In this document: positions 996 through 23,723 of the stretch, one piece after another
Numbering within the stretch: position 1 is the first letter of the stretch
Layout: each line of letters begins with the position of its first letter
Assembly (NCBI GenBank): GCA_028713935.1
Contig: JAQTNI010000018.1
Coordinates: 1-23,790, forward strand
Direction of reading: 5' to 3'
Length of the DNA stretch: 23,790 bases
From: Candidatus Iainarchaeum sp.
GTDB taxonomy: Archaea > Iainarchaeota > Iainarchaeia > Iainarchaeales > GCA-2688035
Program-made: the position numbers and the translations under genes
The notes under the pieces: model-generated
What the model was told of the DNA's origin: nothing
Databases searched by the model: none
What the model saw: only the letters and a program-made list of their open reading frames with translations

Positions 996-1087
996 TAAAA
1001 CACTTGAAGATAATGGGTGCCAAACTGTTTTTAATTTGCTTCTGAAAAAAAGAGCATTTATAAAAGCGGTTTTTGCAGCAATCAATT

Positions 1088-4000
1088 TCAGGGATTTCTA
1101 TGCGCTGCCCACATGGCATCAACAAAAACGCTGTTGTGATATCTGCTGTCTGCTCCGGTGCCGTGCAATTGCGGCAGCCTTCCAATTCCATCCGAAGCAT
1201 CAGTATCCAGAATGCAGGTTCCTGGATTTGCCGGATTATCCCCGAATTTTACGCCATAATCCTGTGCCCACAAGGCAGAATAATCGCACGTGCCGCCAGT
1301 GCAAACTGTTGCGGCATTAGCCGAAGTGCAGGCTGCATTCGGATTGTTTCCACCGGAACACAACCCTGTCATTGGAGCGCATGTGTCTGGTTGTGTCCAG
1401 GTTCCAAAAGAAACCCACCGGTCGGCATAAGTCAATTGTGCAGTGTCATTCCAAACGCTTGCCATTCCGGGAATAAGGTATTCGACAAGCGCGCTTCCCT
1501 TGAGCGCCTTGGAAGTGCAACAACCCTGATATAATCCGCCCGGAACAGAACCACCATCAATAAACAAATAAGGGTCTTTGCAGTCTTTTGAACTTTCATG
1601 GCCTTGCATGCGCAAGTCATTCCAATAACTCAGTGCTTCATTGCCATAATTGCATCGGTCTTGTCCCCAGATAACAGTTCCTATTGGGCTTGTCCAGGTG
1701 TTCCCGGTTTCCGCAAAAGCGTTTTTTGGCGCAGTGCTTACTGCATCTTTCATTGCCTGATTGTTCAATAGAACCGCGGCAAAAGCCAGTGGAAGTTTCA
1801 TTCCCAAATCATGCCCGCCATCAGCAGTCCAGCTTTGTCCCGCCGCACGCATTGCAAAAACATCGATTCCGTACTGCACCAATGCAATTACCGCCGCGCT
1901 TCTTTCCGCTTCAGAATCGCCTGTTTTTGCAAGCATTATGCGCAATGCAGCATCCGTGTTATTATTGGAAACATCCGGCCCATAGGGGTCGGTAAGCTGG
2001 AAATTATCCACCGGATGAATCTGGTCACCACTGTATCCAAGTTTGTGAACCAGTTGCACCCTGTCAATTTTTCTTTTTGCTGCAGCCAGTGTCGGCGCAA
2101 CAGCATCAATTGCCGGGCTCGTGGAAAGCCTTGGAAGAATATTCATCTGCAGACCAGTAGTGGAATACAGTGTTTTTTGGTTTCCGAAGTAGGCTGGCCT
2201 GAAAACGCTTGCTCCGTCATCTGAAGGAACAGTTCCCAAAACAGTTAGCACTGCTGCGGTTTGGAGGTAGGTCTTGAGGCCTGTTTGAGCATAAGGAATA
2301 ACAGAAATTGATTTTACAATAGAGGAATTTGAATTGACAGTACGTGGAAGTGCAGGAACAAGCGCTGCGTTAAAAGTTTCAGCCCGGGTATCGAATCCCT
2401 GCTGATTTAACGCTCCGGAAGGATTTATTTCCCAGCCATTATGCTGTCCGTCAAAAACGGGAGTCATGCTGGTAATTGTAACCGGCCCCAATACCCAGTA
2501 GTCTCCGTTGGCAAATTGTCCTGTTCTGTATCCTTTGTCAAAAGTCCAGGTAATTCCATATTGTGAAAGCGAATTCTGGCAAACAGGGCAGGAACCCCCG
2601 CAATCAACACCTGTTTCCCCATTATTTTGAACTCCGTCCGAACAAGTACCGCCACTGCTACCAACATACTCATAGGCGCCGATATCGTAACCGCTTCCTT
2701 GCGGGCGAGTAATACCGTCAATGTCAACGAACGGACTTGGCAAACTTACAGTCGAAGCCAGATTTGGGTCGCCTGTGTCTTTGACCGAGCTGGTGGGTTG
2801 TAGATGAAAGTCCCAGGCTGAACCAGGAACATAATTAACGAATTGCGGGTCTGCAACAATGTGATTGGAGCCTTCGTTGCTCCAGACACATCGCCCAATC
2901 CCGGTTCCCCAATAACAGGTTGAACCGCAAGCAGGCGATGTTAGCAATGGGTTGTAATAATAATCGTTGTAGTTTGAGTTTACGTTTGTTCCTTTCAGGT
3001 CAATGTTGGTAGAATACAAAATGTTATCTCTGGCAATTATGTTTGAAACATACGCTGCCGGTCCAGCAGTAATGCCAAATACCGGGCAAGTGCTGGCAAT
3101 TGTGTTGGAATGAATGTTCACATTCGAAATGGTTGGGATTGGGTCAAGCCCCATAATGCCGCCTAAACTCATGTCAATAAAGATTCCTTTGGCATTTCCA
3201 TACAGCAAGTCACTGTAAATCACATTCCCATAAATATCAATTTGGTCCTGGTTTCCGGGTGCTTCGTTTGAAAAATAAATATCCTCAGATGAATCTGAAA
3301 GAGTATTATAACGAATAATCAACCCATGCACAAAAGCAGATACACTAATGTTATCCTGATGGCCTGCGCCACCATCATGATAATGAATCCAGTTATTTTC
3401 AACGACAAGATTAGTGCCGTCTATAAGAAGCCCATCATTCCAGTTCTCGTGAACATTATTCCCACGAATGGTTAAATTGGTGTCGCGAACAGCAGAAATT
3501 CCATCCGCGCCAGTAGCATAAACCTCATTGTTTTCTAAGAGAGAATCCGACGACCACCAGGCAATATCAAGCCCGGTTCCCTGAACGTGGTGAACATAAT
3601 TTCCAATAATTTTCAGTCCGATTCCGCCTTGTCCTATTACGCCATCGCTTGTGTAATTTTTTATTTCAAACCCATCAACAGCAGTGTAATCGCTATTACC
3701 CAAATTGATTCCATAGTTGAGGCTGTTTTGCCCATCCAAAATTACCAAACAACCCGTTTTGCCCTGCTTTCCCCTGGCACTCGAATCCCCCTGACAACCT
3801 TCCCCCGAATACGCTTTGAATGTAATCAAATTCCCTGCAGTACCGGAGTGTTGCGGTTCCAGTGTTTCGTTGTATATTCCCGCTCGTACACAAACCACGT
3901 TTCCTGCAACTGCGCTTTGTCCTGCTTTTGTTAGTGTGCACCATGGTTGGGTTATTGTTCCGGGGTTGTTGTCGTTGCAGTTTCCTCCTAGGTTTGCTTT

Positions 4001-5437
4001 GTCGACGTAATGAGTGCAATCAAGACTTGCAGAATTAACTGTTAGTGAAATGTTTCTGGTTGTGTTTCCCTGTCCGTTGGTTGTGTTGGTGAAAGTTACG
4101 GTGTCAGAATAATTTCCTGTTGTCAAACTGTTTGCGTTCGAATTAATCGAAACAGTTACGGTATCAGTTGCTCCGCCAGTTAATGTTCCACTTGTTTTGT
4201 TCAAATCTAACCAGTTTTGGTCTTTAGTTGCTGTCCAGTTGATGCTGGTTGTTCCTGAATTAGTTAAAGTGTATTCTTGTGAATTTGGTGTGAATGGTCC
4301 TCCTGGTGAACCTGAACTGTTTAATCCAGTTGTTGGGTTAACTGTTAGTGCGTTGTTTGTTGGTGTTTCTAAATTGCAGATTGTAATGGTTTGTACTGAT
4401 GTTTGTCCGTTGTCTGCAATGTAACCTAAGTTGTTTATTTGCGTTATTGTGTTTTGGTCTGTTCTGAAGTTGTAATCAGTTGCCAGGTTTTGTTCTGCTT
4501 GCCCTTCAGGAGTTATTGTTACGCTGTACAAGTGGTTCGGAATGTTAATAGTGAGCTTGAAATGGTAAATTGTGCCTGCAGTGTATGCAATTGTGTTTTC
4601 TGCTGAATAGGTGTTTCCGTTTCTAACATCAATTGTTCCATTCGTGTTGAATCTTACAATGGTTGCTAAACTAGAGTATGCTGTTGCGTTTCCATTTGAA
4701 AAGCCTATTACTCCGTCAGAACTGTTTCCATCGGAACTTGCATCAAACTCTGCAACAAATGTGCTTGTTTGATTTTCAATTGAATGGTTCTGCCAGCTTG
4801 TTGTGCTTGTTTCACAGTATGTTCCTGTAAAGTTTTGGTTTGTTTGGCTTGTTGTTAGGTTTGTATAAGAATGGTTTTCTGGTTCAAAAGCCCAGTTTGT
4901 TAGGGTTGGTGTTGTTGTTCCTGTCCAGTGACAAGTTTCTGATAAAGAGTAATAACCGCTGCTGTTTGTTGTTGTGTTGTTTATTGTTACGTTTGGTATG
5001 GGTGTGTTGTTGTTTGTTTTTATGTAGCCTGAAATTGAAAGGTTTTGGTTGTTGCAGTTGCAATCCATGTTGTTTCCGCATTGGCTTGTTCCTGGAGCAT
5101 AAATGATTGTGCATTTTTGGTTTTTGCATTCGTTGTGGCAATTGTTTTCTGTACAAGTGCGTGGTATGCAGTTGATTGTGGTTTCTGGTGTGCATTGGCT
5201 TGGATTTGAACCTGGAACTTGGATGCACTGATTGTTTTTACACTCATAATGAAATTGTTGTGGGTTTGTTCCTATTGTTCCCCGGTTTATTGGGTTTCCG
5301 AAAATATCAGTGATTTGTTCTGGTAAAAAGCTTGGGTTTGTGTTTACAATGCCCAAGATGCTTGTGATTACTATTGCAGAAACTATAATTGCACCGCCAA
5401 TAATCAGCAAGTATTCCAAAGAACCCTGTGCGTTCAT
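1088..5437 (-). CDS. Giant secreted or pilin-anchored multidomain protein: class III signal peptide, Cys-rich modules, Ig/LamG-like units, parallel beta-helix, unassigned C-terminal domain
   Basis: Uninterrupted 1453-codon ORF. The track start is TTG at 5449 and the first ATG is at 5437, giving MNAQGSLEYLLIIGGAIIVSAIV (class III signal pattern). Beta-helix repeats (NNVHENWNDGLLIDGTNLVVENNWIHYHDGG, DIGAYEY end). CSDGVQNNGETGVDCGGSCPVC module at 2579-2644. Confidence 0.9.
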   Translation of the reverse strand: MNAQGSLEYLLIIGGAIIVSAIVITSILGIVNTNPSFLPEQITDIFGNPINRGTIGTNPQQFHYECKNNQCIQVPGSNPSQCTPETTINCIPRTCTENNCHNECKNQKCTIIYAPGTSQCGNNMDCNCNNQNLSISGYIKTNNNTPIPNVTINNTTTNSSGYYSLSETCHWTGTTTPTLTNWAFEPENHSYTNLTTSQTNQNFTGTYCETSTTSWQNHSIENQTSTFVAEFDASSDGNSSDGVIGFSNGNATAYSSLATIVRFNTNGTIDVRNGNTYSAENTIAYTAGTIYHFKLTINIPNHLYSVTITPEGQAEQNLATDYNFRTDQNTITQINNLGYIADNGQTSVQTITICNLETPTNNALTVNPTTGLNSSGSPGGPFTPNSQEYTLTNSGTTSINWTATKDQNWLDLNKTSGTLTGGATDTVTVSINSNANSLTTGNYSDTVTFTNTTNGQGNTTRNISLTVNSASLDCTHYVDKANLGGNCNDNNPGTITQPWCTLTKAGQSAVAGNVVCVRAGIYNETLEPQHSGTAGNLITFKAYSGEGCQGDSSARGKQGKTGCLVILDGQNSLNYGINLGNSDYTAVDGFEIKNYTSDGVIGQGGIGLKIIGNYVHHVQGTGLDIAWWSSDSLLENNEVYATGADGISAVRDTNLTIRGNNVHENWNDGLLIDGTNLVVENNWIHYHDGGAGHQDNISVSAFVHGLIIRYNTLSDSSEDIYFSNEAPGNQDQIDIYGNVIYSDLLYGNAKGIFIDMSLGGIMGLDPIPTISNVNIHSNTIASTCPVFGITAGPAAYVSNIIARDNILYSTNIDLKGTNVNSNYNDYYYNPLLTSPACGSTCYWGTGIGRCVWSNEGSNHIVADPQFVNYVPGSAWDFHLQPTSSVKDTGDPNLASTVSLPSPFVDIDGITRPQGSGYDIGAYEYVGSSGGTCSDGVQNNGETGVDCGGSCPVCQNSLSQYGITWTFDKGYRTGQFANGDYWVLGPVTITSMTPVFDGQHNGWEINPSGALNQQGFDTRAETFNAALVPALPRTVNSNSSIVKSISVIPYAQTGLKTYLQTAAVLTVLGTVPSDDGASVFRPAYFGNQKTLYSTTGLQMNILPRLSTSPAIDAVAPTLAAAKRKIDRVQLVHKLGYSGDQIHPVDNFQLTDPYGPDVSNNNTDAALRIMLAKTGDSEAERSAAVIALVQYGIDVFAMRAAGQSWTADGGHDLGMKLPLAFAAVLLNNQAMKDAVSTAPKNAFAETGNTWTSPIGTVIWGQDRCNYGNEALSYWNDLRMQGHESSKDCKDPYLFIDGGSVPGGLYQGCCTSKALKGSALVEYLIPGMASVWNDTAQLTYADRWVSFGTWTQPDTCAPMTGLCSGGNNPNAACTSANAATVCTGGTCDYSALWAQDYGVKFGDNPANPGTCILDTDASDGIGRLPQLHGTGADSRYHNSVFVDAMWAAHRNP

Positions 5438-5593
5438 CCACAAAAACAATGGCTTTTCAGAATAAATACTTTTCTATTGGGCCGGCTTTAGTTTAGGGCG
5501 TTATTGGAAGGATGCTCAAAAATTGCCTTTCTGTTTTTTGTCGAACTGCAGGCTGTTTTCTTAGGCCTTCTTTTTTGCCTTTTTGTTATAATT

Positions 5594-5796
5594 TTGTTTT
5601 CTTTTCATGCGCGCCAGAGAATATTGTTAAGAGGCATTGAAGAATCAACAGTAATTTATATTCTTAAAAATCCTGATTTTGTTGAAGAATCTTTTGATGG
5701 AGAAAAATTGCAGTTAAAAAATTGGAAAAAACCTGGCACGTTGTTTTCGCAGAGGAAGCAGGCAGGATTATTGTAATCAGCGTTTTTTTCTTTTAA
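5594..5796 (+). pseudogene. DUF4258-family (toxin-like) gene with a 1-nt frameshift in an A5 run
   Basis: Frame 1 from TTG 5594 reads MFSFHARQRILLRGIEESTVIYILKNPDFVEESFDGEK. From 5701 the other frame reads (R)KIAVKKLEKTWHVVFAEEAGRIIVISVFFF*, with the stop at 5794-5796. Together they form a canonical about 67-aa DUF4258 protein. One extra A in aaaaa (5703-5707) would restore the frame. Confidence 0.55.
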
Positions 5797-6008
5797 GCGA
5801 TTGCTTCCAGAACTTTTAAGCGGCTTTCCGGCAAATTTTTTGATGCATTGAGAATTTCAATGCCAATTATTTTTTTATCTGCGTCAAAATCAATAAGAAT
5901 ATCTTCTTTCAACGGCAAAGTTTGTTTCACAATGCCTGGCTGCATTTTTCCTATTGCAATGCAGATTGCGTCTGCTTGTTTGTCAAAAGGCAATTTTGCA
6001 TTTTTCAT
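5793..6008 (-). CDS. DUF2283-family protein (antitoxin-like partner of DUF4258)
   Basis: MKNAKLPFDKQADAICIAIGK...ILIDFDADKKIIGIEILNASKNL matches the YDxEADALYI...D..G.I.GIEIL.AS pattern. I chose the ATG at 6008, which gives 71 aa. An A/T-rich TATA-like box (atttttttaaag on the minus strand) lies about 25-30 nt upstream, suggesting a leaderless mRNA. Confidence 0.7.
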   Translation of the reverse strand: MKNAKLPFDKQADAICIAIGKMQPGIVKQTLPLKEDILIDFDADKKIIGIEILNASKNLPESRLKVLEAIA

Positions 6009-6087
6009 AAAATAAGCTTTCTTCAAGCCCTTTAAAAAAATATGCAAAAAACAAGCCTGTTCGTTTTTTGCCGAACCCGTCGCATGA

Positions 6088-6095
6088 TTTTTAAA
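6088..6095 (+). promoter_or_regulatory. TATA-box candidate for the 1388-aa gene (leaderless or short-leader mRNA)
   Basis: tttttaaa is centred about 26 nt upstream of the ATG at 6118, which is the usual archaeal TATA-to-TSS spacing. No Shine-Dalgarno site lies between them. Confidence 0.35.
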
Positions 6096-6117: not shown

Positions 6118-9100
6118 ATGAAAAAAATTCCAAAGTACTTTTTCATGGCATTGCTTCTTGCCGTAATTTTTTTTCTCTCCGGGTGTGTTTCCAATGAGCT
6201 TTCCGATTCTGAAAGATTTTTGTGCAGTGATTTGAGCAGCAAGTCTTTTGCTTTTGTGCCTGAATGTGATTCCCAGGAAAAATGTTTTGAAAAGGCCGAA
6301 TCAGAGCTTTTTAATTTTGATTCCAGTGCCCTGCCTCAAAATTCAAAATCAATGCTTTTTTCTCTTGAAAACAACCTTGCTTCAAGCTGGCTTTTTTTTG
6401 GCAAGGCAGGGAAAAACATAAAGGCAATCAATTCAATATGCTCTTCAGGAGAAAATCTGCAGGGCCTTGCTTCAGAGATAAATGAATTGAACCACAATCT
6501 CGCAAATTCTTTCAAATTTTCAGACAAGGCAAGCAAATTTGCTTTTGCAATTCTGTCTGAAGAAGGGCAAAACCTTGATTCCGAAAAAATTTTTCTTGCA
6601 AAAGAAGAGCCATTGTTCAGCGATTTTATTCTTTTGAACAACAACCTTAATGATTTGCAGGCGCAAAGCCTCAATTCAGAATCTTTTTCAGGATATTACC
6701 TTGTCCAGATGAAAAGCCTTGAAGGCCTGATGCAGAAAACAGGCTTTGAAAGGGATTTTGTTGAAGAAGAAACCCCGATTGATTTTTTCAGGCAGCATGA
6801 ATCGGAAATAATGGGCTCGGAACAGTCAAAAAGAATCCTGAAAATTCCCTTTATTTCCAAAACAATTGATTATTTTGTTTCTTTTCTGGATGGCTTTTTG
6901 AGAATCAATTCCGCTTCTGAAGCGCTTGCAAAAATGCCTGCTTTTGAATATTTGCAGGCATACAATAACCTTGCAGGCACGGAAAATTCCGCAATTAAAA
7001 AATTTTCCGAACTCCTCAAATTTGATTCTTTGCACAGGCTTGAATTGCTTGAAAGGAATTCAATGCTTGAAATGCAAATCCTTGAAAAAATCAATTCGGC
7101 TTCACAAAAAATTGATTCGCTTTCAGCAAGGGAATTTGTTTCTTTTGACACAAATTTTTTTGCGGAGCTTTACTCTCTTTTAGAAGGGGATTCGCAGCTT
7201 GAAACACAGAAGTTTGCACTTCAGGATTTTTCAGGCTTTCGGGAAAAGGCGCTTGCAGAGCTTCTCCCAATGCAGGTTAGCATAAACGAACTGAAGCAAA
7301 AAAGCGTTTTGGGAACAATCACAATCGGCGAAAGAACAGAAGCCCTGAAAAACCTGGATCTTGATGTTTCCTCTTTGATTGAAAACCTTTCTTTTTTGGA
7401 ATCAGAGGCAATTTCAGGCCTTGAAGTGCTCTGTGAAGAAAGAACAGGCAAAATTTCTGATTTTCTTGATGAACAGGAAAAGGGGCTGTTTCTGCAAAGC
7501 GAATCAGACCTTGCAGCAAGGCTAAGGTTCAGGATTTCAGAATTCAAGGAAGCAGAGGATTTTGACAAAAAGCTTTTTTTGTGCAAAAGCGCAATAGAGG
7601 AATTCAATGATTTGAAGCTTTCAGTCCAGGATTCAAAAGAATATTTGCTTAAGCAGGCCCTATCGCTGGACAATTGCTTTGAAAGCCTGGAAAAAATTTT
7701 TTCTTCAAGGCAGCCCCTTATAGACCTTTCAGATTTCCAGTTAAGGCTTGAAAAAATAAAGCGGATTGAAAAGCCCTATTCCGACCTTGAAAGCGTGAAA
7801 AGGTTCTGCGATTTGCTCCAAAAAGACACAATTAATTTCCTGAATTACAATTCCGAAATAATTGCACTGAAAAAAAGCTTTTCCCATTCAAAAGAATTGC
7901 TTGAAAAACTTGTTCTTGTAAATGAGCGCTCAGGCAATTTTTCTTCAGGCATTTCCCTTAGTGCTTTCCAGTCAAGGCTTTCAGGGAACGCAAAATATTT
8001 TTCAGAAAACTCAGTTATCTTTGAAAAAGCGCTTCCTGTCCTGCCCGACCTTAAAGAAAGCCTTTTTTCTCTGGAAGAAAGCCTTGAAAAAGAGCTTGAC
8101 AAGGCAATAGCGGATTTTGCATCAAAAAATTCTTCAATTGAATATTTCTTTGATTCAGTGCCTGAACTGAACAATGATTTCAATGCGCGCATAAGAATAA
8201 CTGCAACCAACCCTTTCCAGGCAACAAAAAAAGTTTCCCTGAAAATCCCTTTCTCCGGCTTTGCTTCCCGGCCTGCACTGCCGGAAAACATGGTTTTCAG
8301 TGATGGCTTCCTTTTCATTGGCCTTGATTCTCTCCCTTTAGGAATTTCTTTTTTTGAATTCCAGGCAATGCAAAGCATTCCCTTTGAAGAGGAAACAATT
8401 GTGCTGAGCGCAACAGAAGCAACAGTTGCGCTTGAAAAAAAGCTTGTGCTCAAAACAACTGCTTCTTTGCCACGCATCAAAATAGAAACAAAGCTCATTG
8501 ATTCAAAAGCCTCTCCCCTGGACATTTTCATTGCTTGCAAAAACCCGGTTTCGGCTTTTTCCCTGCAGGAAAACAAAATTTCTTTTTTCATTGACAAGCC
8601 AATCCCAAACCAGCAAATTGAAATATATTTTTCAATTCCCAAAGGAATTGATTCTTCAATTGCACTGGATTCCTCAAAACAGGCAGACATGAACAATTTT
8701 GAAAGCACTTTCTCAATTTTAATAAAAAACACTCTGCCAATTGCAATTGAAAACGCATCCTTTTCACTTTCCATTCCACTTTCCCAAGAAAAAATAACAA
8801 ATTTTTTTGTCCTTGATTCAGCAGGAGAAAAAGCCCCATCAAAAATAAATTCTGGCAAATTGCTGTTTGAGCTGAAAAAAATCTTCCCATTTGAAACAAA
8901 AAAATTTTTGCTGGCACTTTCCTACAAAGACAGCACTGGCTTCTGGCTTGGATTCCTTGAAAAAACAAGGCAAACAGCAGAACTTCTTTCTTCCCCTGAA
9001 GGAAAAGGACTGCTTGCAGAACTCTCTTCTTTTTCCGAAACAGACCTGAAAAACGATTCAAAAATTTCAAGGCTTGTTTCAATTGCAGGCGAAATTTCAA

Positions 9101-10284
9101 AATTAGCCTCTTATGAAAGCAGCAGGCAAAGCACAATGGAACAATTTTTTCCCCTTAAAAGCAAAATAGAGGAACAAATTTCTTTGCTTGAATCAAACTC
9201 CCTGTTAATGCAAAAAGCAGGGGTTTCAGAAAAACAGCTCGCAGGAGCAATTGCAAGCGCAAAAAGCCTTGCACTGCAGGCAGAGTCGCTTTTTAATTCC
9301 GGCTCTTTTGAAGAAGCCCTGAAAACTCTTTTCAAGGCAAACTCATCCTTGCAGGAAGCTGATTTGCAGGCTTTTTCAAAAAAACTTCTCTCTCAGAAAG
9401 CAAAGCTTCTTGAAAAGCCAAACAATTTCTGGGCACAGCTTGTTTCATTAAAAGAAACGGAAAAATTTGCCAGTGACCACGATTCATTGCTTTCAAGCGA
9501 TTCAGAAATTGAAAACAGCATTGCAACAGGAGATTTCAACAAGGCTGTTTTTTTGCTTGACTCACTTGAAAAAAAATCAGGCGCATTTGCCTCAAAAACA
9601 GAGTCTTTTCTTTCTGAAAAAGCCAAGGCAGTTTCAGAAAGGCTGGATTTTTTTACAAAAGCCATTTCAAAAACAATTCCCGAAAAAATCTCTTCTTTGC
9701 GTTCTCTCCTTGAAAGCGTTCCGGAAGAAACAGCCTCAAAGCTTGGTTATGTTGCCCCAATTTCAAAAGAAAGGCTCCAGAAGCTTGAACTCCAATTGAA
9801 TTCATTGCAGGGAACAAAGCTTTCAGAACAAGCCCTTTCTTTCAAAGAACTTGTTTCAGCCAAGCAATTTTCAGAAGCATTAAAAAAATTCTCGGAATTT
9901 GAAGCGGAATTTGAAAAAAAAGAAACAGAATTAAAATCCATGGAATCAGAGCTTGATTCCGCAATTTCCTCAATGAAAGAAGATGCTGCTTCTGCAATAA
10001 ACAAGGCTTCCGCATACTTAAGCTCTGGCCAATTCAATGCGGAAGCAATGGACTTGATTTCAAAATCAAAAACAAATTTTGAAAAAAAAGATTTTTTGAA
10101 GTCAATTGCATTTGCAAATGCGGCAACAGCAATGCTCGCAATGCCAAAAGCACAATTTGACATTCCGGTTTTTCTTTATCCAATCATAATCGGAATCTGC
10201 CTTGTTTTTATAGCAAGATACAAAAAGCGCCTTGCAAAAGAAAAAAAAGTTGAATTCAGGAAAATCCTGAGAAAACAGGAATAA
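6118..10284 (+). CDS. Giant envelope protein: lipobox signal peptide, long helical or coiled-coil regions, central beta-rich region, C-terminal TM anchor
   Basis: 1388-codon ORF with an ATG start. N-terminus MKKIPKYFFMALLLAVIFFLSGC, with the lipobox LSGC Cys at 6184-6186. C-terminus IPVFLYPIIIGICLVFIARYKKRLAKEKK (TM helix plus basic tail). The composition is dominated by S, L, E, K, F and A, with heptad-like stretches. aa about 700-950 look beta-rich. Confidence 0.85.
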   Translation: MKKIPKYFFMALLLAVIFFLSGCVSNELSDSERFLCSDLSSKSFAFVPECDSQEKCFEKAESELFNFDSSALPQNSKSMLFSLENNLASSWLFFGKAGKNIKAINSICSSGENLQGLASEINELNHNLANSFKFSDKASKFAFAILSEEGQNLDSEKIFLAKEEPLFSDFILLNNNLNDLQAQSLNSESFSGYYLVQMKSLEGLMQKTGFERDFVEEETPIDFFRQHESEIMGSEQSKRILKIPFISKTIDYFVSFLDGFLRINSASEALAKMPAFEYLQAYNNLAGTENSAIKKFSELLKFDSLHRLELLERNSMLEMQILEKINSASQKIDSLSAREFVSFDTNFFAELYSLLEGDSQLETQKFALQDFSGFREKALAELLPMQVSINELKQKSVLGTITIGERTEALKNLDLDVSSLIENLSFLESEAISGLEVLCEERTGKISDFLDEQEKGLFLQSESDLAARLRFRISEFKEAEDFDKKLFLCKSAIEEFNDLKLSVQDSKEYLLKQALSLDNCFESLEKIFSSRQPLIDLSDFQLRLEKIKRIEKPYSDLESVKRFCDLLQKDTINFLNYNSEIIALKKSFSHSKELLEKLVLVNERSGNFSSGISLSAFQSRLSGNAKYFSENSVIFEKALPVLPDLKESLFSLEESLEKELDKAIADFASKNSSIEYFFDSVPELNNDFNARIRITATNPFQATKKVSLKIPFSGFASRPALPENMVFSDGFLFIGLDSLPLGISFFEFQAMQSIPFEEETIVLSATEATVALEKKLVLKTTASLPRIKIETKLIDSKASPLDIFIACKNPVSAFSLQENKISFFIDKPIPNQQIEIYFSIPKGIDSSIALDSSKQADMNNFESTFSILIKNTLPIAIENASFSLSIPLSQEKITNFFVLDSAGEKAPSKINSGKLLFELKKIFPFETKKFLLALSYKDSTGFWLGFLEKTRQTAELLSSPEGKGLLAELSSFSETDLKNDSKISRLVSIAGEISKLASYESSRQSTMEQFFPLKSKIEEQISLLESNSLLMQKAGVSEKQLAGAIASAKSLALQAESLFNSGSFEEALKTLFKANSSLQEADLQAFSKKLLSQKAKLLEKPNNFWAQLVSLKETEKFASDHDSLLSSDSEIENSIATGDFNKAVFLLDSLEKKSGAFASKTESFLSEKAKAVSERLDFFTKAISKTIPEKISSLRSLLESVPEETASKLGYVAPISKERLQKLELQLNSLQGTKLSEQALSFKELVSAKQFSEALKKFSEFEAEFEKKETELKSMESELDSAISSMKEDAASAINKASAYLSSGQFNAEAMDLISKSKTNFEKKDFLKSIAFANAATAMLAMPKAQFDIPVFLYPIIIGICLVFIARYKKRLAKEKKVEFRKILRKQE

Positions 10285-10363: not shown

Positions 10364-10969
10364 ATGCAGCCAGGTCGAAAATTTTTTAGAAGAAAGACGC
10401 CTGAACAAAAACATGCTGAAGCCAGGTTAAAAGCCTGGCAAACCCCGGCAGATAAAAGTGTTCAAAAAATAGCCAAAGTGCTCAACAAACCTGCCTTTTT
10501 GCGCTCAAAAAGAGCTGAACTTGAAGCAAAACTAATCGGAAAAGCGGCAGTGGGTGAAAAAGTTGCAGAACAGGTAAAAAATCCAGCGATTCAAAAGGAA
10601 ATATTGTTTTTGGCCCAACAATTGTTTTTGCCAAGAGAAGAACTTAAAAAAATTCGGAGTGCAATTGCATCGGGAAAAATAAGAGGGCCTATGTGCTTGG
10701 CATTAGTGCAGGGGCACAGATTGTTTCAATTGGCCCAGCAAGAGCCTGAAATGGTAAGGCCTTTGGCACAGGCATTTTTCCGAAGAAAAGGGAACTCCAG
10801 TCAAACCCGTTCTATGCTGATTCACTTTATTGAGTATATCCTGAGAAACCCGGGAAATCCCCATGTTTTTGAAATAGAAGACCCTTTATATCCCGAACAA
10901 TGGGTTGTTGCACTAACTGCTCAAGGCCATTGGACAGCCAAGAGAAGAAGAAAAATAGGGGAAAATTAA
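10364..10969 (+). CDS. Hypothetical basic protein (201 aa), no recognisable domain
   Basis: Clean ATG-initiated ORF with no competing frame. Basic N- and C-termini (RKFFRRKTPEQKH..., AKRRRKIGEN). I recognise no motif. Confidence 0.55.
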   Translation: MQPGRKFFRRKTPEQKHAEARLKAWQTPADKSVQKIAKVLNKPAFLRSKRAELEAKLIGKAAVGEKVAEQVKNPAIQKEILFLAQQLFLPREELKKIRSAIASGKIRGPMCLALVQGHRLFQLAQQEPEMVRPLAQAFFRRKGNSSQTRSMLIHFIEYILRNPGNPHVFEIEDPLYPEQWVVALTAQGHWTAKRRRKIGEN

Positions 10970-10974
10970 CAAAA

Positions 10975-12219
10975 TCACTTGCTCTTCATTATGTAGACAT
11001 AGACTGCTATTCCGATTATTACGAGAATAATCACTGCAATTATTTCCAGGCCTATTCCGGGCTGTTCAAAAACAAGTTTTGAATTTTCGCATTTTGATTC
11101 TGCAAAATTAAAATCGGAATAAACAAGCTTGCAGCCAATGTCAAATGTCCCTGCCTGGCTAGCAGTTGCATCAAAACTCAATTGGATTGTTTCTCCAGGC
11201 GCAATTGTTTCAATTGTTTTTGTCTGGGTTCCCGTGATGCTTATTCCGGGAGGCGCAATTATTGATGCCTCAATGTTGTAAAGCCTGTCTTTTCCCCTGC
11301 TTGTCACATTAAGCACCAAAGGCACTGTCTGTCCAAGCTGGTTAATTTCTTTTTCTTTTTCAATAAAGGCATCAACTTTTTTTTCAGGCTCCCTTATTTT
11401 TATTGTTGCCTGGCCTGAAAAAATAACTTCTTGTTCTCCAAATTCGTTTGTATAATAAACAGCCGCAGGCGGCAGAGTAATGCTGCCAATCACTCTTGGC
11501 TTTATTACATAATCAATTTTTATGTCACTGCCTGGCTCAATTGTTCCCTGTGCATAGGCTTTTCCTTCAATAAAAACAAAGGCTTTTTTTTCCTCTGCAA
11601 TTGGCCTTGCATACTTTAATTCTATTTCTGCAGGGCCAGACCCTGCATTATGTAGATTTACTGTTACTTTTGTTGTGTCCCCTATTACCATTTCGCTTTT
11701 GTCTGCAGTTGTTGTAAAATAATCTGCTGTTTTAAACGGGTATTGCTTGCCAAATTGCGCTGTTTTATAGAGGCCGATTTTTGATGAATTTTTCAGGTTT
11801 ATTGAAGCAGTGCTGTTTGAGGCGTGCAGGCAAATATCAAGCCTGTTTGTCCCTTCCAAGAGATTTTCTTTTGGCAGCCATATCCTGCTCCAGCATTCAG
11901 TGCCATTGCACTTGAATTCAGTGGTTTTTTTTTCTGCAAGAGGCGCATTGTTTATGTTAACATCGATTTTTGCTGCTTCTGACGCAACAGGGGAAAAATC
12001 GGAATTCAGGGATAAAATCGGGTAATTCCCATTTGAAAATGCATTTTGGTCAGAAGGAAAACCGAAATCGACAAAAGTGCAGGCAGTGCTGCCAGGGCTG
12101 TCAACTGAAAAATTTTGATAGCCGAGTTCCTGAAAATTTTTTTCAAAAACAGTTTCTGCGCTGGCAAAGCCAGCAAAGAGCAATATCAGTAAGCATGCCA
12201 ATAGCAATTTAACCTTCAT
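10975..12219 (-). CDS. Secreted surface protein with CARDB/DUF11-like beta-sandwich repeats and a C-terminal TM anchor (S-layer-like)
   Basis: Trimmed from GTG 12225 to ATG 12219, giving MKVKLLLACLLILLFAGFASA/ETV (Sec signal). aggggtg Shine-Dalgarno site 3-9 nt upstream. Repeats of the TKVTVNLHNAGSGPAEIELKY and IAPGETIQLSFDATASQAGTF type. C-terminus QPGIGLEIIAVIILVIIGIAVYVYIMKSK. Confidence 0.82.
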   Translation of the reverse strand: MKVKLLLACLLILLFAGFASAETVFEKNFQELGYQNFSVDSPGSTACTFVDFGFPSDQNAFSNGNYPILSLNSDFSPVASEAAKIDVNINNAPLAEKKTTEFKCNGTECWSRIWLPKENLLEGTNRLDICLHASNSTASINLKNSSKIGLYKTAQFGKQYPFKTADYFTTTADKSEMVIGDTTKVTVNLHNAGSGPAEIELKYARPIAEEKKAFVFIEGKAYAQGTIEPGSDIKIDYVIKPRVIGSITLPPAAVYYTNEFGEQEVIFSGQATIKIREPEKKVDAFIEKEKEINQLGQTVPLVLNVTSRGKDRLYNIEASIIAPPGISITGTQTKTIETIAPGETIQLSFDATASQAGTFDIGCKLVYSDFNFAESKCENSKLVFEQPGIGLEIIAVIILVIIGIAVYVYIMKSK

Positions 12220-12256
12220 TTGCACCCCTTTCCTTGTACTTTATTAATTGCATAAA

Positions 12257-17982: not shown

Positions 17983-18261
17983 TTATTTTTTGTATATCTT
18001 GTCGTGATGGTCGTAGTCTTCTATTGTTACTTTTTTTTCTTTTTCGTTGATTGAATAGGTAAGCACAAAAGGCCCGTAAGTATGGACTCTTCTTTTTCCC
18101 TGCATTGGCTTTTTTAGCGGCTTGAATCTGTATGGGTCTTCAAGAATTTCCTTTATTTTTCTTTTTACTGCTTCTTCCTGTGCAGGGTCTTTCTTCGCTA
18201 TTTTTTCAAATACCCTGTCTACGTGTTTTCTGGTTTCCAGAAAAAAGGCCAAGAAAATCAT
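17983..18261 (-). CDS. relE: RelE/ParE-family toxin (type II toxin-antitoxin system)
   Basis: 92 aa. ...KRKIKEILEDPYRFKPLKKPMQGKRRVHTYGPFVLTYSINEKEKKVTIEDYDHHDKIY fits the RelE/ParE fold pattern. Its ATG overlaps the upstream gene's stop as ATGA (18258-18261). Confidence 0.78.
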   Translation of the reverse strand: MIFLAFFLETRKHVDRVFEKIAKKDPAQEEAVKRKIKEILEDPYRFKPLKKPMQGKRRVHTYGPFVLTYSINEKEKKVTIEDYDHHDKIYKK

Positions 18262-18500
18262 CTCTTGCGCAGCTGTTCAAAGTAACTGTCAATGTCCCTG
18301 ATTTTAATGGTTTTTTCTTTCTCAATCTTCCTGAGCTTTTCAATGTATTCGGGCCTAAGTTCCGGCTCAAGCAGTTCTTCTTCATAGTCTGAGGCCATTT
18401 TGTTTATGGCTTCGCTCTTGTCGTTCAAGCCGTATTTGGCTTTAATTATGTTAATTACCCTGTTGGCATTTTCATCAAGCTTTACAATCGCAGTAGGCAT
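18258..18500 (-). CDS. Antitoxin-like protein (archaeal DUF2683-like)
   Basis: 80 aa. MPTAIVKLDENANRVINIIKAKYGLNDKSEAINKMASDYEEELLEPELRPEY matches, from memory, the conserved N-terminus of archaeal DUF2683 proteins that precede RelE-like genes. 4-nt overlap with the toxin gene. Confidence 0.75.
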   Translation of the reverse strand: MPTAIVKLDENANRVINIIKAKYGLNDKSEAINKMASDYEEELLEPELRPEYIEKLRKIEKEKTIKIRDIDSYFEQLRKR

Positions 18501-19507: not shown

Positions 19508-20848
19508 ATGAACAGGAACCAGATTATTGCGCTTGCAATTGGAATTCTAATGATTTCCTCGACAATTGGCTTTGCTTTTCTCAGCGTTACAAACCAGCAG
19601 CCAGGCAATCCTGACACTTCAGGCAATACTGACAACACTCCTGTTCCGCCTGCCAGTGAAATAAAATTCAAGGCAGATTCGCAGAAAGCAAAAGTTGTTG
19701 ACATTTTGCCTTTAATAAAAATTTTTGGCGCCACTTCGGAATATGACATCCAAAAAATTGACGCCTCAATTTATGGAATAACCGGAGTAAAAAAAATTTC
19801 CTCTGTTTTTGACACCACTTCTGCTTCTTCCCTTACTTATGTTGCGGAAATTTCACTTGAACCAGGCCTCTCTCCGCAAATGCTTGTAAAAGAAATAACT
19901 GGCAGAAAAATCCTTTCTTCCCCTGATGGAGTTTCGTATGCCGTTGTTGAACTTCCAAAAAAAATTGTTTTCCAGAGCGAAAACTCTGATTTGAACCTTT
20001 CAAAAGAATACGAGTTTGCAGATTCCCAGGGCCAGGCATTGATTGGCTTTGGAAGCATCAAGGGCGATGAGATCTTGGTAAGCGTTTCAGCCACTTTTGC
20101 AGGTTCAAAGCTTGTTAATTTGATTTCTGTTGAAGAAGAAAATCTCACTGCAAAACAATTGTCTGGCACTGCAAGCCTTGAATTGCCAATCAAGTCCCTT
20201 GAACCAAACCTTGTTTTTTCAGCAAAAGCATTTTTTTCAAACAATCCTGCTTCGGAAGAATTGAAATCAAAAATAAGCCAGATACAGGATTTTAATTCAG
20301 TTGAAATTGAAGCCGCAAGCATTGCGCCAAAAATAACCCTTTCAGGCGAAACTGCCTTGCCGGAAGAGCAAGTGCATGACCTCAATGTTTTTGTCCAATC
20401 GCTTAATCCGCAGAGCGCCTCTTTTTTCAATCAAGGCGGATTTTCCGCTTCAATTCCTTTTGATTCTGACGCAAACCTTGCAGATGCAAAAGCAAGGCTT
20501 GAAGCCCAATTAAAAACAATGGGCCTGGAAAACGTGCTTGCAGAGGAAAATTCAGGCACTCTTTATGGAAATGTTTCCCTGCAGCAAACAGGCACAGGAA
20601 CTCCTGCGCTTCAATTAAGGCAGGTTCTTGATTCCTATTCCCTCCTGGAAATCCAAATCCTTCAGCCGGCAGGGCTTGAATTAAGCGGCATTTTTGATGC
20701 CAATGCAAACGCAACTTATGCAATTGACTCTAATTCAATTCCTGCACAAATAAAGCCAGGCCATTCAATTGGCGAAAAATTAAAGGCAAGCATTCTTTAT
20801 TACACAAGCAGGGGCAAAATCATTTACATTGCGGCAGAAGAAGAATAA
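19508..20848 (+). CDS. Hypothetical N-terminally membrane-anchored extracytoplasmic protein (446 aa)
   Basis: ATG start. MNRNQIIALAIGILMISSTIGFAFLSV signal-anchor, then a Pro/Thr/Asn linker and a Ser/Leu/Glu-rich body. I recognise no motif. Confidence 0.7.
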   Translation: MNRNQIIALAIGILMISSTIGFAFLSVTNQQPGNPDTSGNTDNTPVPPASEIKFKADSQKAKVVDILPLIKIFGATSEYDIQKIDASIYGITGVKKISSVFDTTSASSLTYVAEISLEPGLSPQMLVKEITGRKILSSPDGVSYAVVELPKKIVFQSENSDLNLSKEYEFADSQGQALIGFGSIKGDEILVSVSATFAGSKLVNLISVEEENLTAKQLSGTASLELPIKSLEPNLVFSAKAFFSNNPASEELKSKISQIQDFNSVEIEAASIAPKITLSGETALPEEQVHDLNVFVQSLNPQSASFFNQGGFSASIPFDSDANLADAKARLEAQLKTMGLENVLAEENSGTLYGNVSLQQTGTGTPALQLRQVLDSYSLLEIQILQPAGLELSGIFDANANATYAIDSNSIPAQIKPGHSIGEKLKASILYYTSRGKIIYIAAEEE

Positions 20849-22847: not shown

Positions 22848-23723
22848 TCATGCGTTTCCCCTCATTTTCTCAACAAACGCTTGAGCTGGAGTTCTCAAGT
22901 GTCCATTAGTCAAGCTCATGTGATGGATGTCGTTGTTGTAAGCTGATACTGCTTTTTGAACTGAACCGTAGTGTTTTTTGAGTTTTTTTAGTGTGCCGAA
23001 CCAGCGTTCCATTTTGCCGTTTGTTTGTGGGTGTTTTACTCTTGCTTTGATGTGTTGGATGCCATATTTTTTGAGTGTTTGTTGAAACAAGTTGTCTTGT
23101 GGTTCTGGACAGGCTTCTTTTCCTATTGAAGTGAACTGCACTCCATGGTCTGAAACCAGTTGCCTGGGAGCGCCATATGAATAGATTGCTTTTGTTAGAA
23201 TGTCTGCTGCGTTCTCTGCAGTTGCATTATCATACTCGTTGCAAGCGGGAACAAAGCGGGAAGCATCATCAAGAACACCAACAACTTGTTTCTCATCTAT
23301 CTCGCAATAATCAATATGCCACAGACTGTTGCTGTGTTTTCTCTCATAGCGAATCCATTTGCGCTTATTGCTCTTTGTGGGTTGTTCTTGAGCCAGCTTC
23401 TTTTCTCGCAGAACACAGTGAATAGTATTGTGTGGAATGTGCACTCCCTGATAGTCCAAAAACTGTTCCATTTTCACAGCCCCAATAGGCGTTTTCTTGA
23501 ATGTTTGTTCAATCAACTGTTGCGTTTCAAACGGTATTGGCACAGGTTTCTTGCCAGGCCTTTTGGGAAAAGGAAACTGGTCTGTTTCCAGATAGCGCTC
23601 AAACAGTTTTCTCACCCAACGAGCTGTTACTCCCTGTTGTTTGGCAATCTGCCAAACACTCAGTTCGCCCAACCGCATTTGTTTTATAATCCACCGAACC
23701 TTGTTTTTGTTCAGCTTCCTCAT
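22848..23723 (-). CDS. DDE transposase / integrase core (rve) with N-terminal HTH
   Basis: HTH: LSVWQIAKQQGVTARWVRKLFERY. Catalytic triad context: WHIDYC (D), SDHGVQFTS (D), HPQTNGKMERWFGTLK (E). ATG preceded by a GGAGGT Shine-Dalgarno site. Confidence 0.9.
   Translation of the reverse strand: MRKLNKNKVRWIIKQMRLGELSVWQIAKQQGVTARWVRKLFERYLETDQFPFPKRPGKKPVPIPFETQQLIEQTFKKTPIGAVKMEQFLDYQGVHIPHNTIHCVLREKKLAQEQPTKSNKRKWIRYERKHSNSLWHIDYCEIDEKQVVGVLDDASRFVPACNEYDNATAENAADILTKAIYSYGAPRQLVSDHGVQFTSIGKEACPEPQDNLFQQTLKKYGIQHIKARVKHPQTNGKMERWFGTLKKLKKHYGSVQKAVSAYNNDIHHMSLTNGHLRTPAQAFVEKMRGNA

Follow-up and report, generated by a model that had tools for sequence, protein, structure and literature searches.

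What a single gene of 4.2 kb does at the surface of a very small archaeal cell is the question raised by a locus of Candidatus Iainarchaeum sp., found in a stretch of 23,790 nucleotides (contig JAQTNI010000018.1 of assembly GCA_028713935.1; this whole stretch is called the window). The genomes of DPANN archaea are tiny, yet the sampled Iainarchaeota carry this gene as a single copy, and its cost points to an important role at the cell surface. Its product, a protein of 1388 amino acids (aa) referred to here as the giant, founds an undescribed family, mainly from Iainarchaeota, a lineage of DPANN archaea. Both ends of the giant seem to be attached to the membrane, and its anatomy suggests a structural part of the cell envelope. 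The gene is placed as follows:

6118..10284, + strand: giant gene, an ATG-to-stop open reading frame (ORF) of 1388 aa

The frame runs for 1388 codons without a break, from the ATG through the stop codon, exactly where an earlier reading of the letters without database searches (the sequence-only reading) had placed it, and a chance origin of such an open frame in DNA of 38% G+C is impossible. The first database search with the giant returned 19 proteins, all named 'hypothetical' and all from Diapherotrites/Iainarchaeum or from unclassified archaeal metagenome-assembled genomes (MAGs). Among them were full-length homologs from independent assemblies, 1261-1402 aa long and 23-75% identical to the giant. 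Because these homologs are collinear, and because homologs of about 1260-1430 aa can be aligned from its first to its last part, the giant is one real gene and not a frameshift fusion, and the objection that several genes had been joined falls away. The composition described in the sequence-only reading, rich in Ser, Leu, Glu, Lys and Phe, was confirmed by counting residues (Ser 13.5%, Leu 13.3%, Glu 10.0%, Lys 9.7%, Phe 8.4%); relative to seven cytosolic housekeeping proteins encoded in the same window, Ser is raised 2.6-fold and Phe 1.9-fold.

The extent of the family was assessed with a profile of the N-terminal 690 residues, which was searched against 1.84 billion representative proteins and matched 232 clusters (50% identity level) at E <= 0.001, 185 of them at E <= 1e-30. 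Most members are 1200-1450 aa long, and a second group measures 900-1100 aa. A scan of one genome per GTDB species located 27 giant loci, a single locus per genome record, in genomes labelled Iainarchaeum, Diapherotrites or 'archaeon', with two labelled Micrarchaeota; this count is a lower bound, given that the scan requires two specific peptide patterns. No family member carries a name or a precomputed Pfam domain. Searches of Pfam, NCBIfam and PHROGs with the whole giant, three sub-regions and 11-18 family members gave nothing above threshold, and no match to PDB sequences was obtained with the single protein, with two profiles or with the members of two alignments. The only Pfam-type matches, all sub-threshold, were to Prominin, ANAPC3, RepB and ApoA-II, and these were treated as helical low-complexity noise. 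The earlier statement that no family could be recognised is upheld by these searches; the objection that the giant might belong to a known S-layer (surface layer) family fails, as no homology to any such family was found. Literature searches, in which hits were judged by titles and abstracts, yielded no paper evidently describing the giant family. Membrane-anchored archaeal surface proteins with a lipobox are already known as a general kind, and what is undescribed in the searched sources is the family itself, the fold of its N-terminal domain, its double anchoring and its order of domains.

The two membrane anchors, and the tail that follows the second, occupy these positions:

6118..6186, + strand: lipoprotein-type signal peptide (aa 1-22) and lipobox L-S-G-C, with Cys23 at 6184-6186
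10156..10215, + strand: C-terminal transmembrane helix, approximately aa 1347-1366, at a hydropathy peak, with a conserved D-I-P...Y-P entry motif before the helix
10216..10284, + strand: basic tail, aa 1367-1388 (RYKKRLAKEKKVEFRKILRKQE), and stop codon; presumably cytoplasmic

The N-terminus reads MKKIPKYFFMALLLAVIFFLSG followed by C, and the codon of this Cys23 lies at 6184-6186. The signal consists of a basic n-region (MKKIPK), a hydrophobic core (YFFMALLLAVIFF) and LSG followed by C; a lipobox was taken to require a basic n-region, a hydrophobic core and the pattern [LVI][ASTVI][GAS]C approximately 15-35 residues from the start, and the giant shows all of these. All of the 10 full-length homologs compared keep G22 and C23 unchanged. 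Conservation was then scored over 102 full-length family representatives of at most 50% pairwise identity, the sample on which residue conservation is given throughout; C23 is present in 92% of them, and the exceptions are all N-terminal gaps (shorter or truncated gene calls). Lipobox variants such as LFGC, LAGC, TLGC and LNGC occur, in which G-C still closes the hydrophobic core. Lipidation of Cys23 is predicted from this motif.

A 19-residue hydropathy scan detected only two hydrophobic segments in the giant, at aa 2-29 and aa 1345-1369. Of the 140 family members of at least 900 aa, 132 possess a C-terminal hydrophobic helix, and P1355, at the entry of the transmembrane helix, is conserved in 93%. 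Behind this helix stands the basic tail ARYKKRLAKEKKVEFRKILRKQE, which has a mean length of 23 aa and contains 36% K+R in 98 representatives; inspection by eye revealed in many tails a recurring hydrophobic-[KRQ]-[KR]-[IVL]-x-[RK] pattern (for instance FRKILR, LQKVLRN and IKIERV). On the positive-inside rule, the tail would lie in the cytoplasm and the bulk of the giant outside the cell. Both anchors are found family-wide, so the earlier suggestion that both ends may be tethered has become the natural reading, and the lipobox, the transmembrane helix and the basic tail on which it drew are all conserved features. To our knowledge, double anchoring by a lipid and a transmembrane helix is unusual for lipoproteins. 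If both anchors are used, the giant would be an archaeal protein held in this way, and it would lend itself, as a substrate, to testing the archaeal lipidation pathway that was discovered recently.

The objection that this lineage might have no lipoprotein machinery is answered in part. A 2025 study (PMC12462473) predicts a high prevalence of lipobox proteins among DPANN archaea, and the candidate lipidation enzyme AliA (with AliB, arCOG02177/02178) is reported there, although its distribution has some gaps. In addition, loci related to the window encode unrelated proteins of 300-320 aa with a lipobox start (such as MDKKLLILVLILVLLIFSGC), which indicates that the lineage uses lipobox signals beyond the giant. 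These ORFs begin at the following offsets, each on the strand stated:

L012, 14055 (+): lipobox ORF
L016, 1908 (-): lipobox ORF
L021, 1119 (-): lipobox ORF
L022, 2035 (-): lipobox ORF
L025, 902 (-): lipobox ORF

Between the anchors, structure models divide the protein into three parts:

6187..8133, + strand: N-terminal all-helical ectodomain, aa 24-672, as modelled by AlphaFold; the best conserved part, with eight near-invariant Cys
8134..8925, + strand: central module of two or three tandem beta-sandwiches, aa 673-936, from AlphaFold strands at model residues 33-296
8926..10155, + strand: C-terminal helical bundles, aa 937-1346, with model helices of 15-60 residues and short breaks

The N-half was modelled with AlphaFold as aa 1-690 from an alignment of 18 sequences, giving a mean predicted local distance difference test score (pLDDT) of 79 and a predicted template-modelling score (pTM) of 0.59. 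The model contains helices only, of 10-51 residues each, and pLDDT exceeds 90 across aa 50-200 and 280-330. The C-half, modelled as aa 641-1388 from 11 sequences (pLDDT 85, pTM 0.61), comprises one helix, the strands of aa 673-936 and then helices up to the membrane helix. A beta-rich core flanked by helical regions, estimated from the sequence at aa ~700-950, is therefore recovered by the models with slightly different limits, and a duplication inside this module was indicated by HHalign (probability 68%). In the models, both of them confident by pLDDT, approximately 75% of the ectodomain is helical, and aa 937-1346 are rich in Ser (16%), Lys (12%) and Ala (11%); the only Pfam matches of this C-terminal stretch, below threshold, are to Prominin and ANAPC3. 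The description of the helical regions as 'heptad-like' is only weakly sustained. By a home-made score, the 99th percentile of shuffled sequences is surpassed in 5.7% of 28-residue windows of the protein and in 8.9% of those from its C-terminal region, and the models show broken bundles, not a long coiled coil. HHalign detected no repeat relation between the N- and C-terminal helical regions, nor any sequence repeat within the N-domain. The weakness of the heptad signal and the absence of detectable mutual repeats indicate that the helical regions are bundles rather than one long coiled coil. The family includes natural short variants, P0005, P0009 and P0011-P0014 (914-1004 aa), in which the equivalent of aa ~750-1165 is missing, that is, the beta module and the first C-terminal helices. 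These proteins keep the lipobox, the N-domain (aa 1 to ~740) and aa ~1165-1388, including the last helices, the transmembrane helix and the tail.

The cysteines of the giant require a correction of the statement that it has almost no Trp, His or Cys. This holds for Trp and His (3 and 5 residues), but the cysteines carry the strongest signal of all: nine of the 11 are conserved at 92-99%, namely C23, C36, C50, C56, C108, C439, C489, C520 and C564, whereas C807 and C1361 are not conserved. The eight that lie in the N-half beyond C23 are conserved at 97-99%. Their rare losses are paired, one sequence lacking both 439 and 489 and another both 520 and 564, as expected of disulfides outside the cell, and the simplest reading would be that the N-domain carries four extracellular disulfides. 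Conservation as a whole peaks in the first 300 residues, where near-invariant polar or aromatic positions include N85, S90, W91, N122, E163, E164 and S291 of the giant.

Fold comparison of the N-half with Foldseek gave nothing significant in the PDB, the best match being EzrA (4uxv; E = 0.52, probability 0.51, template-modelling scores (TM-scores) of 0.14-0.18), and nothing significant among the predicted viral structures of BFVD. EzrA, ClyA-type toxins and tape-measure proteins were the non-significant matches, all at E > 0.05. A spectrin-repeat or EzrA-like arch would call for a significant fold or profile match to triple-helix repeats, and none was obtained: the same E-value of 0.52 is accompanied by E = 1.1 for the Pfam family Spectrin_Anc-1 and by the lack of an internal repeat in the N-domain.

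Taken together, we tentatively favour, at somewhat less than an even chance, the view that the giant is a lineage-specific structural arch or spacer between the membrane and the S-layer of Iainarchaeota. The lipoprotein-type signal peptide would export the protein, and Cys23 would become its lipid-modified N-terminus, while the last hydrophobic helix would cross the membrane, so that the 22-residue basic tail ends up inside the cell. The ectodomain of ~1320 residues would then form a loop held at the membrane by both ends, built from the helical N-domain, probably stapled by four disulfides, the distal beta-sandwiches and the helical bundles that lead back to the membrane. Standing on the external surface of the membrane, such a loop could serve as an arch or spacer in the space beneath the S-layer. 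The beta-sandwich module might serve as an outward-facing interaction platform, either for the neighbouring 416-aa membrane protein with immunoglobulin-like (Ig-like) domains or for the S-layer, and the conserved tail may couple the giant to something cytoplasmic. The earlier term 'scaffold-scale envelope component' would fit this anatomy. No catalytic or other family signatures were found in the giant or its family members with Pfam and NCBIfam. As a candidate filler or organiser of the space under the S-layer in uncultured Iainarchaeota cells, the giant, whose function we infer, is a good lead for archaeal-envelope and DPANN biology.

Several points weigh against an arch. No characterised homolog of the giant is present among the searched databases. 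The two halves were modelled as separate pieces, and the geometry of an arch goes beyond either model. The variants of ~1000 aa without the beta module imply that the proposed platform is dispensable in some lineages. The adjacency of the giant and the 416-aa gene may be due to no more than the strong conservation of gene order throughout their block, and the conserved polar residues of the N-terminal region suggest a binding or catalytic site over a passive scaffold.

The last of these points leads to an alternative in which the N-terminal helical domain has a specific surface activity, whether in binding or sensing, in the handling of lipids or solutes, or as an enzyme that escapes recognition, and the rest of the protein positions it. 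The strong conservation of the first 300 aa with their near-invariant polar and aromatic residues speaks for such an activity, as does a Phe and Leu content unusually high for an exported domain, and the conserved motif of the cytoplasmic tail would suit signalling across the membrane. Neither sequence nor fold comparison, however, links the domain to a family of catalysts, sensors or transporters, and its gene has no conserved nearby partners such as kinases or ABC components; this alternative is considered unlikely.

A place for the giant in the S-layer itself, whether as a lattice protein or as a stalk tying the lattice to the membrane in the manner of SlaB and tetrabrachion, S-layer stalk proteins with a C-terminal membrane anchor, appears distinctly unlikely. 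The giant is a core, single-copy surface protein, as would befit an S-layer part, and the order of its C-half (beta-sandwiches, long helices and a C-terminal transmembrane helix) parallels that of SlaB-type anchors as presented in a preprint (bioRxiv 10.1101/2024.05.28.596244). That preprint, however, assigns the S-layer of Iainarchaeota to an apparently different protein of a beta-sandwich type, A0A2G9N319 (1039 aa), and it characterises archaeal lattice domains as Ig-like, beta-helix or MSTP-like beta-sandwich folds. Lattice domains would be expected to fill most of an S-layer protein, whereas the giant is ~75% helical and has no Pfam match. With respect to a stalk, a C-terminal transmembrane helix is present, but the helices of the monomer model are at most 60 residues long with breaks, forming broken bundles and no continuous stalk, and the heptad signal is weak. 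N-glycosylation sequons are few and not enriched (6, against 10.3 +/- 2.7 in shuffled sequences), and the ~1000-aa variants without the beta module also count against a role in the lattice or its stalk.

Two genes lie directly downstream of the giant:

10364-10969, + strand: basic ORF of 201 aa, in the gap that separates the giant from the 416-aa gene
10975..12225, - strand: 416-aa convergent neighbour, with a Sec signal peptide, an N-domain, two Ig-like (CARDB/BatD/TRAP_beta-type) domains and a C-terminal transmembrane helix

The gene order is AMMECR1 (-), giant (+), 416-aa gene (-), Fap7-like kinase (-), aCPSF1, proteasome beta and FKBP (all -) and a gene for a ~450-aa protein (+), and it is kept in essentially every locus with enough sequence; such a fixed block of housekeeping genes is as expected of a core gene. 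Wherever the downstream sequence reaches far enough, an ortholog of the 416-aa gene adjoins the giant; this holds even for L020 (4006-9999, from a MAG labelled Micrarchaeota), where no gene of the conserved block but the giant is inverted, so that the 416-aa ortholog immediately precedes it and shares its strand. Being convergent, the two genes do not form one transcript, and because the whole block is syntenic, their adjacency alone is weak evidence of partnership; the 416-aa protein is a conserved neighbour of the giant and possibly its partner. The conserved trio of 1388-, 201- and 416-aa proteins proposed in the sequence-only reading did not survive comparison, as the 201-aa ORF has no counterpart in 30 other loci. 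No signal peptide, transmembrane helix or Pfam, NCBIfam or PHROG match was found in it, and from this comparison it is read as a genome-specific insertion. The giant and the 416-aa gene lie almost end to end in L006, the closest relative, and in L001 the gap after the giant holds a DUF7557/ParE pair (ParE-type toxin).

A role of the giant as an adhesin or host-contact protein of a DPANN symbiont is improbable. The idea is invited by the size and surface exposure of this DPANN protein and by beta-sandwich modules like those of integrin legs and many adhesins, yet the protein is single-copy and collinear among its homologs, is encoded within a housekeeping block, and is conserved evenly along its length, with no repeat expansion and no variable tip. 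The tethering of both ends would also limit its reach.

It is highly improbable that the giant and the 416-aa protein are accessories of the Sec translocon or of the AglB oligosaccharyltransferase, as distant counterparts of ribophorin I (Ost1) and TRAP-beta, even though the best fold matches of the C-half lead to this idea. Foldseek returned 26 PDB matches to the C-half at E <= 0.001, the best being subunit 1 of the eukaryotic oligosaccharyltransferase (OST), the legs of integrin alpha and the mu-homology domains of clathrin adaptors (E = 2e-6 to 1e-3). The OST subunit 1 chains, whose identities were verified by sequence search, are human RPN1 (8b6l_O at E = 2.3e-6, 8pn9_E, 6s7t_E and 6s7o_E) and yeast Ost1 (6ezn_A, 7oci_A and 8agb_E); their E-values run from 2.3e-6 to 1.4e-3 with probabilities of 0.89-1.0, but the TM-scores are just 0.10-0.19 and the root-mean-square deviations 16-45 A. 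TM-scores are low across all C-half matches (0.1-0.35) and the OST, integrin and mu-homology groups score alike, so that the match reflects tandem beta-sandwiches and little more. The core gave no family match to Ribophorin_I (PF04597; hmmscan, E <= 10), and none of 11 members matched that family or any other Pfam family at gathering score.

The case of the 416-aa protein is similar. A signal peptide and a C-terminal membrane helix are present in all 26 of its orthologs, its two Ig-like domains are duplicated (HHalign), and its invariant cysteines include C47, C130, C363 and C377. It scores above the threshold of Pfam TRAP_beta (PF05753; 33.4 bits against a cut-off of 22.4), as do nine of 12 orthologs, but the same domains are also matched by CARDB, BatD, DUF11 and NPCBM_assoc, the first three about equally well. 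A profile of the 416-aa family found no TRAP-beta chains in the PDB at E <= 1, which weakens the candidacy of this protein as a true relative of TRAP-beta. The vicinity contains no gene for SecY, AglB or a ribosome-related membrane protein. If the OST or translocon relationship were nonetheless true, a DPANN lineage would hold relatives of the accessories of the eukaryotic translocon of the endoplasmic reticulum. The likeness that the sequence-only reading had drawn between the beta core of the giant and the CARDB/DUF11-like repeats of the 416-aa protein was not reproduced, and homology of the two was rejected (BLASTP, E = 0.09; HHalign, 16.6% over 71 columns); no Pfam match of the core to CARDB, DUF11, BatD or NPCBM_assoc was detected in any of 11 members.

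That the giant ORF is an assembly or frameshift artefact joining several genes can be dismissed as next to impossible, for its length and order of domains recur in over 100 full-length homologs drawn from independent metagenomes and MAGs.

Two candidate regulatory elements precede the giant:

6060..6075, + strand: palindrome TTCGTTTTTTGCCGAA (TTCG-N8-CGAA), 58 bp upstream of the giant ATG, a candidate transcription-factor site
6088..6095, + strand: TATA-like box TTTTTAAA, ~28 bp upstream of the ATG

In 427 kb, comprising the window and the fetched loci, the exact palindrome occurs 13 times, against ~4.9 in shuffled sequences, and 11 of the 13 copies lie 50-61 bp upstream of the ATG of a giant ortholog. 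These are the single copy in the window, at 6060-6075, and those of ten loci (L001, L005, L009-L015 and L020); four further loci have the palindrome with one mismatch. A TATA-like box at -27 to -32 was found by pattern match in 12 of 21 orthologous loci, and a variant of the TTTTTATT type was seen by eye at the same place in six more. It probably serves as the promoter, with a spacing that fits a leaderless or near-leaderless archaeal mRNA. The palindrome looks like the conserved operator of some regulator and would thereby offer a handle on the regulation of the giant. In the window, a 5-kb insertion separates AMMECR1 from the giant, and the palindrome remains beside the giant.

The window is archaeal by its gene content, which includes aCPSF1/FttA, proteasome beta, AMMECR1, a Fap7-like kinase and a class III signal peptide protein; Rfam and tRNA scans of the window found nothing. 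The 5-kb insertion contains the gene of the 1453-aa protein and the DUF4258/DUF2283 pair listed here with the other features of the window:

1088-5449, - strand: 1453-aa protein with a class III (pilin-like) signal peptide, BACON_2 and a choice-of-anchor Q domain; an insertion between AMMECR1 and the giant relative to other loci
5504-5776, + strand: DUF4258 (sub-threshold, 23 versus 25 bits), convergent with the next gene
5793-6011, - strand: DUF2283 (47.5 bits); the convergent pair lies just upstream of the giant promoter
17983-18261, - strand: ParE-family toxin gene, inserted between the proteasome beta and FKBP genes
18258-18500, - strand: probable antitoxin ORF, upstream of the ParE-family gene and overlapping it
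19508-20848, + strand: 446-aa envelope protein with an N-terminal anchor and no family match, syntenic in L001 and L003
21686-22714, - strand: 342-aa secreted Cys-rich envelope protein with a C-terminal transmembrane helix and no family match
22848-23723, - strand: transposase/integrase (rve core and HTH_23) at the window edge, probably an insertion sequence

The G+C content is 0.43-0.49 over 1001-4000 and ~0.38 elsewhere in the window, which hints at a foreign origin of the 1453-aa gene. The pairing of DUF4258 with DUF2283 is one that we take to be toxin-antitoxin-like.

Four known systems may be set beside the giant. The luminal domain of OST subunit 1 (Ost1/ribophorin I), a best fold match of the central module, has tandem beta-sandwiches on the non-cytoplasmic side followed by helices, a plan that the giant may resemble; against this stand the low TM-scores, the equally good matches of integrin legs and mu-homology domains, and the lack of both a Ribophorin_I sequence match and a link to glycosylation genes. 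EzrA is a cytoplasmic, FtsZ-binding, membrane-anchored spectrin-like arch of bacteria; both proteins have repeated helical bundles on a membrane, and either could conceivably form an arch, whereas the N-domain of the giant is presumably extracellular and disulfide-bearing and the fold match is not significant. The archaeal lipobox lipoproteins, as illustrated by the AliA/AliB substrates of Haloferax volcanii (PMC12462473), have the same charged n-region, hydrophobic core and L-S-G-C at the expected distance, and the giant departs from them by its additional C-terminal transmembrane helix. No sequence similarity connects the giant with SlaB of Sulfolobales or tetrabrachion of Staphylothermus; it adds a helical N-domain of 650 residues and a putative N-terminal lipid anchor, and its modelled helices form interrupted bundles in place of the one long coiled coil of these stalks. 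The likeness lies in the general plan, in which, in part according to the preprint (bioRxiv 10.1101/2024.05.28.596244), an exported protein presents beta-sandwiches, then long helices and a C-terminal transmembrane helix, and in the place that the giant would probably share with these stalks, between the membrane and an outer layer.

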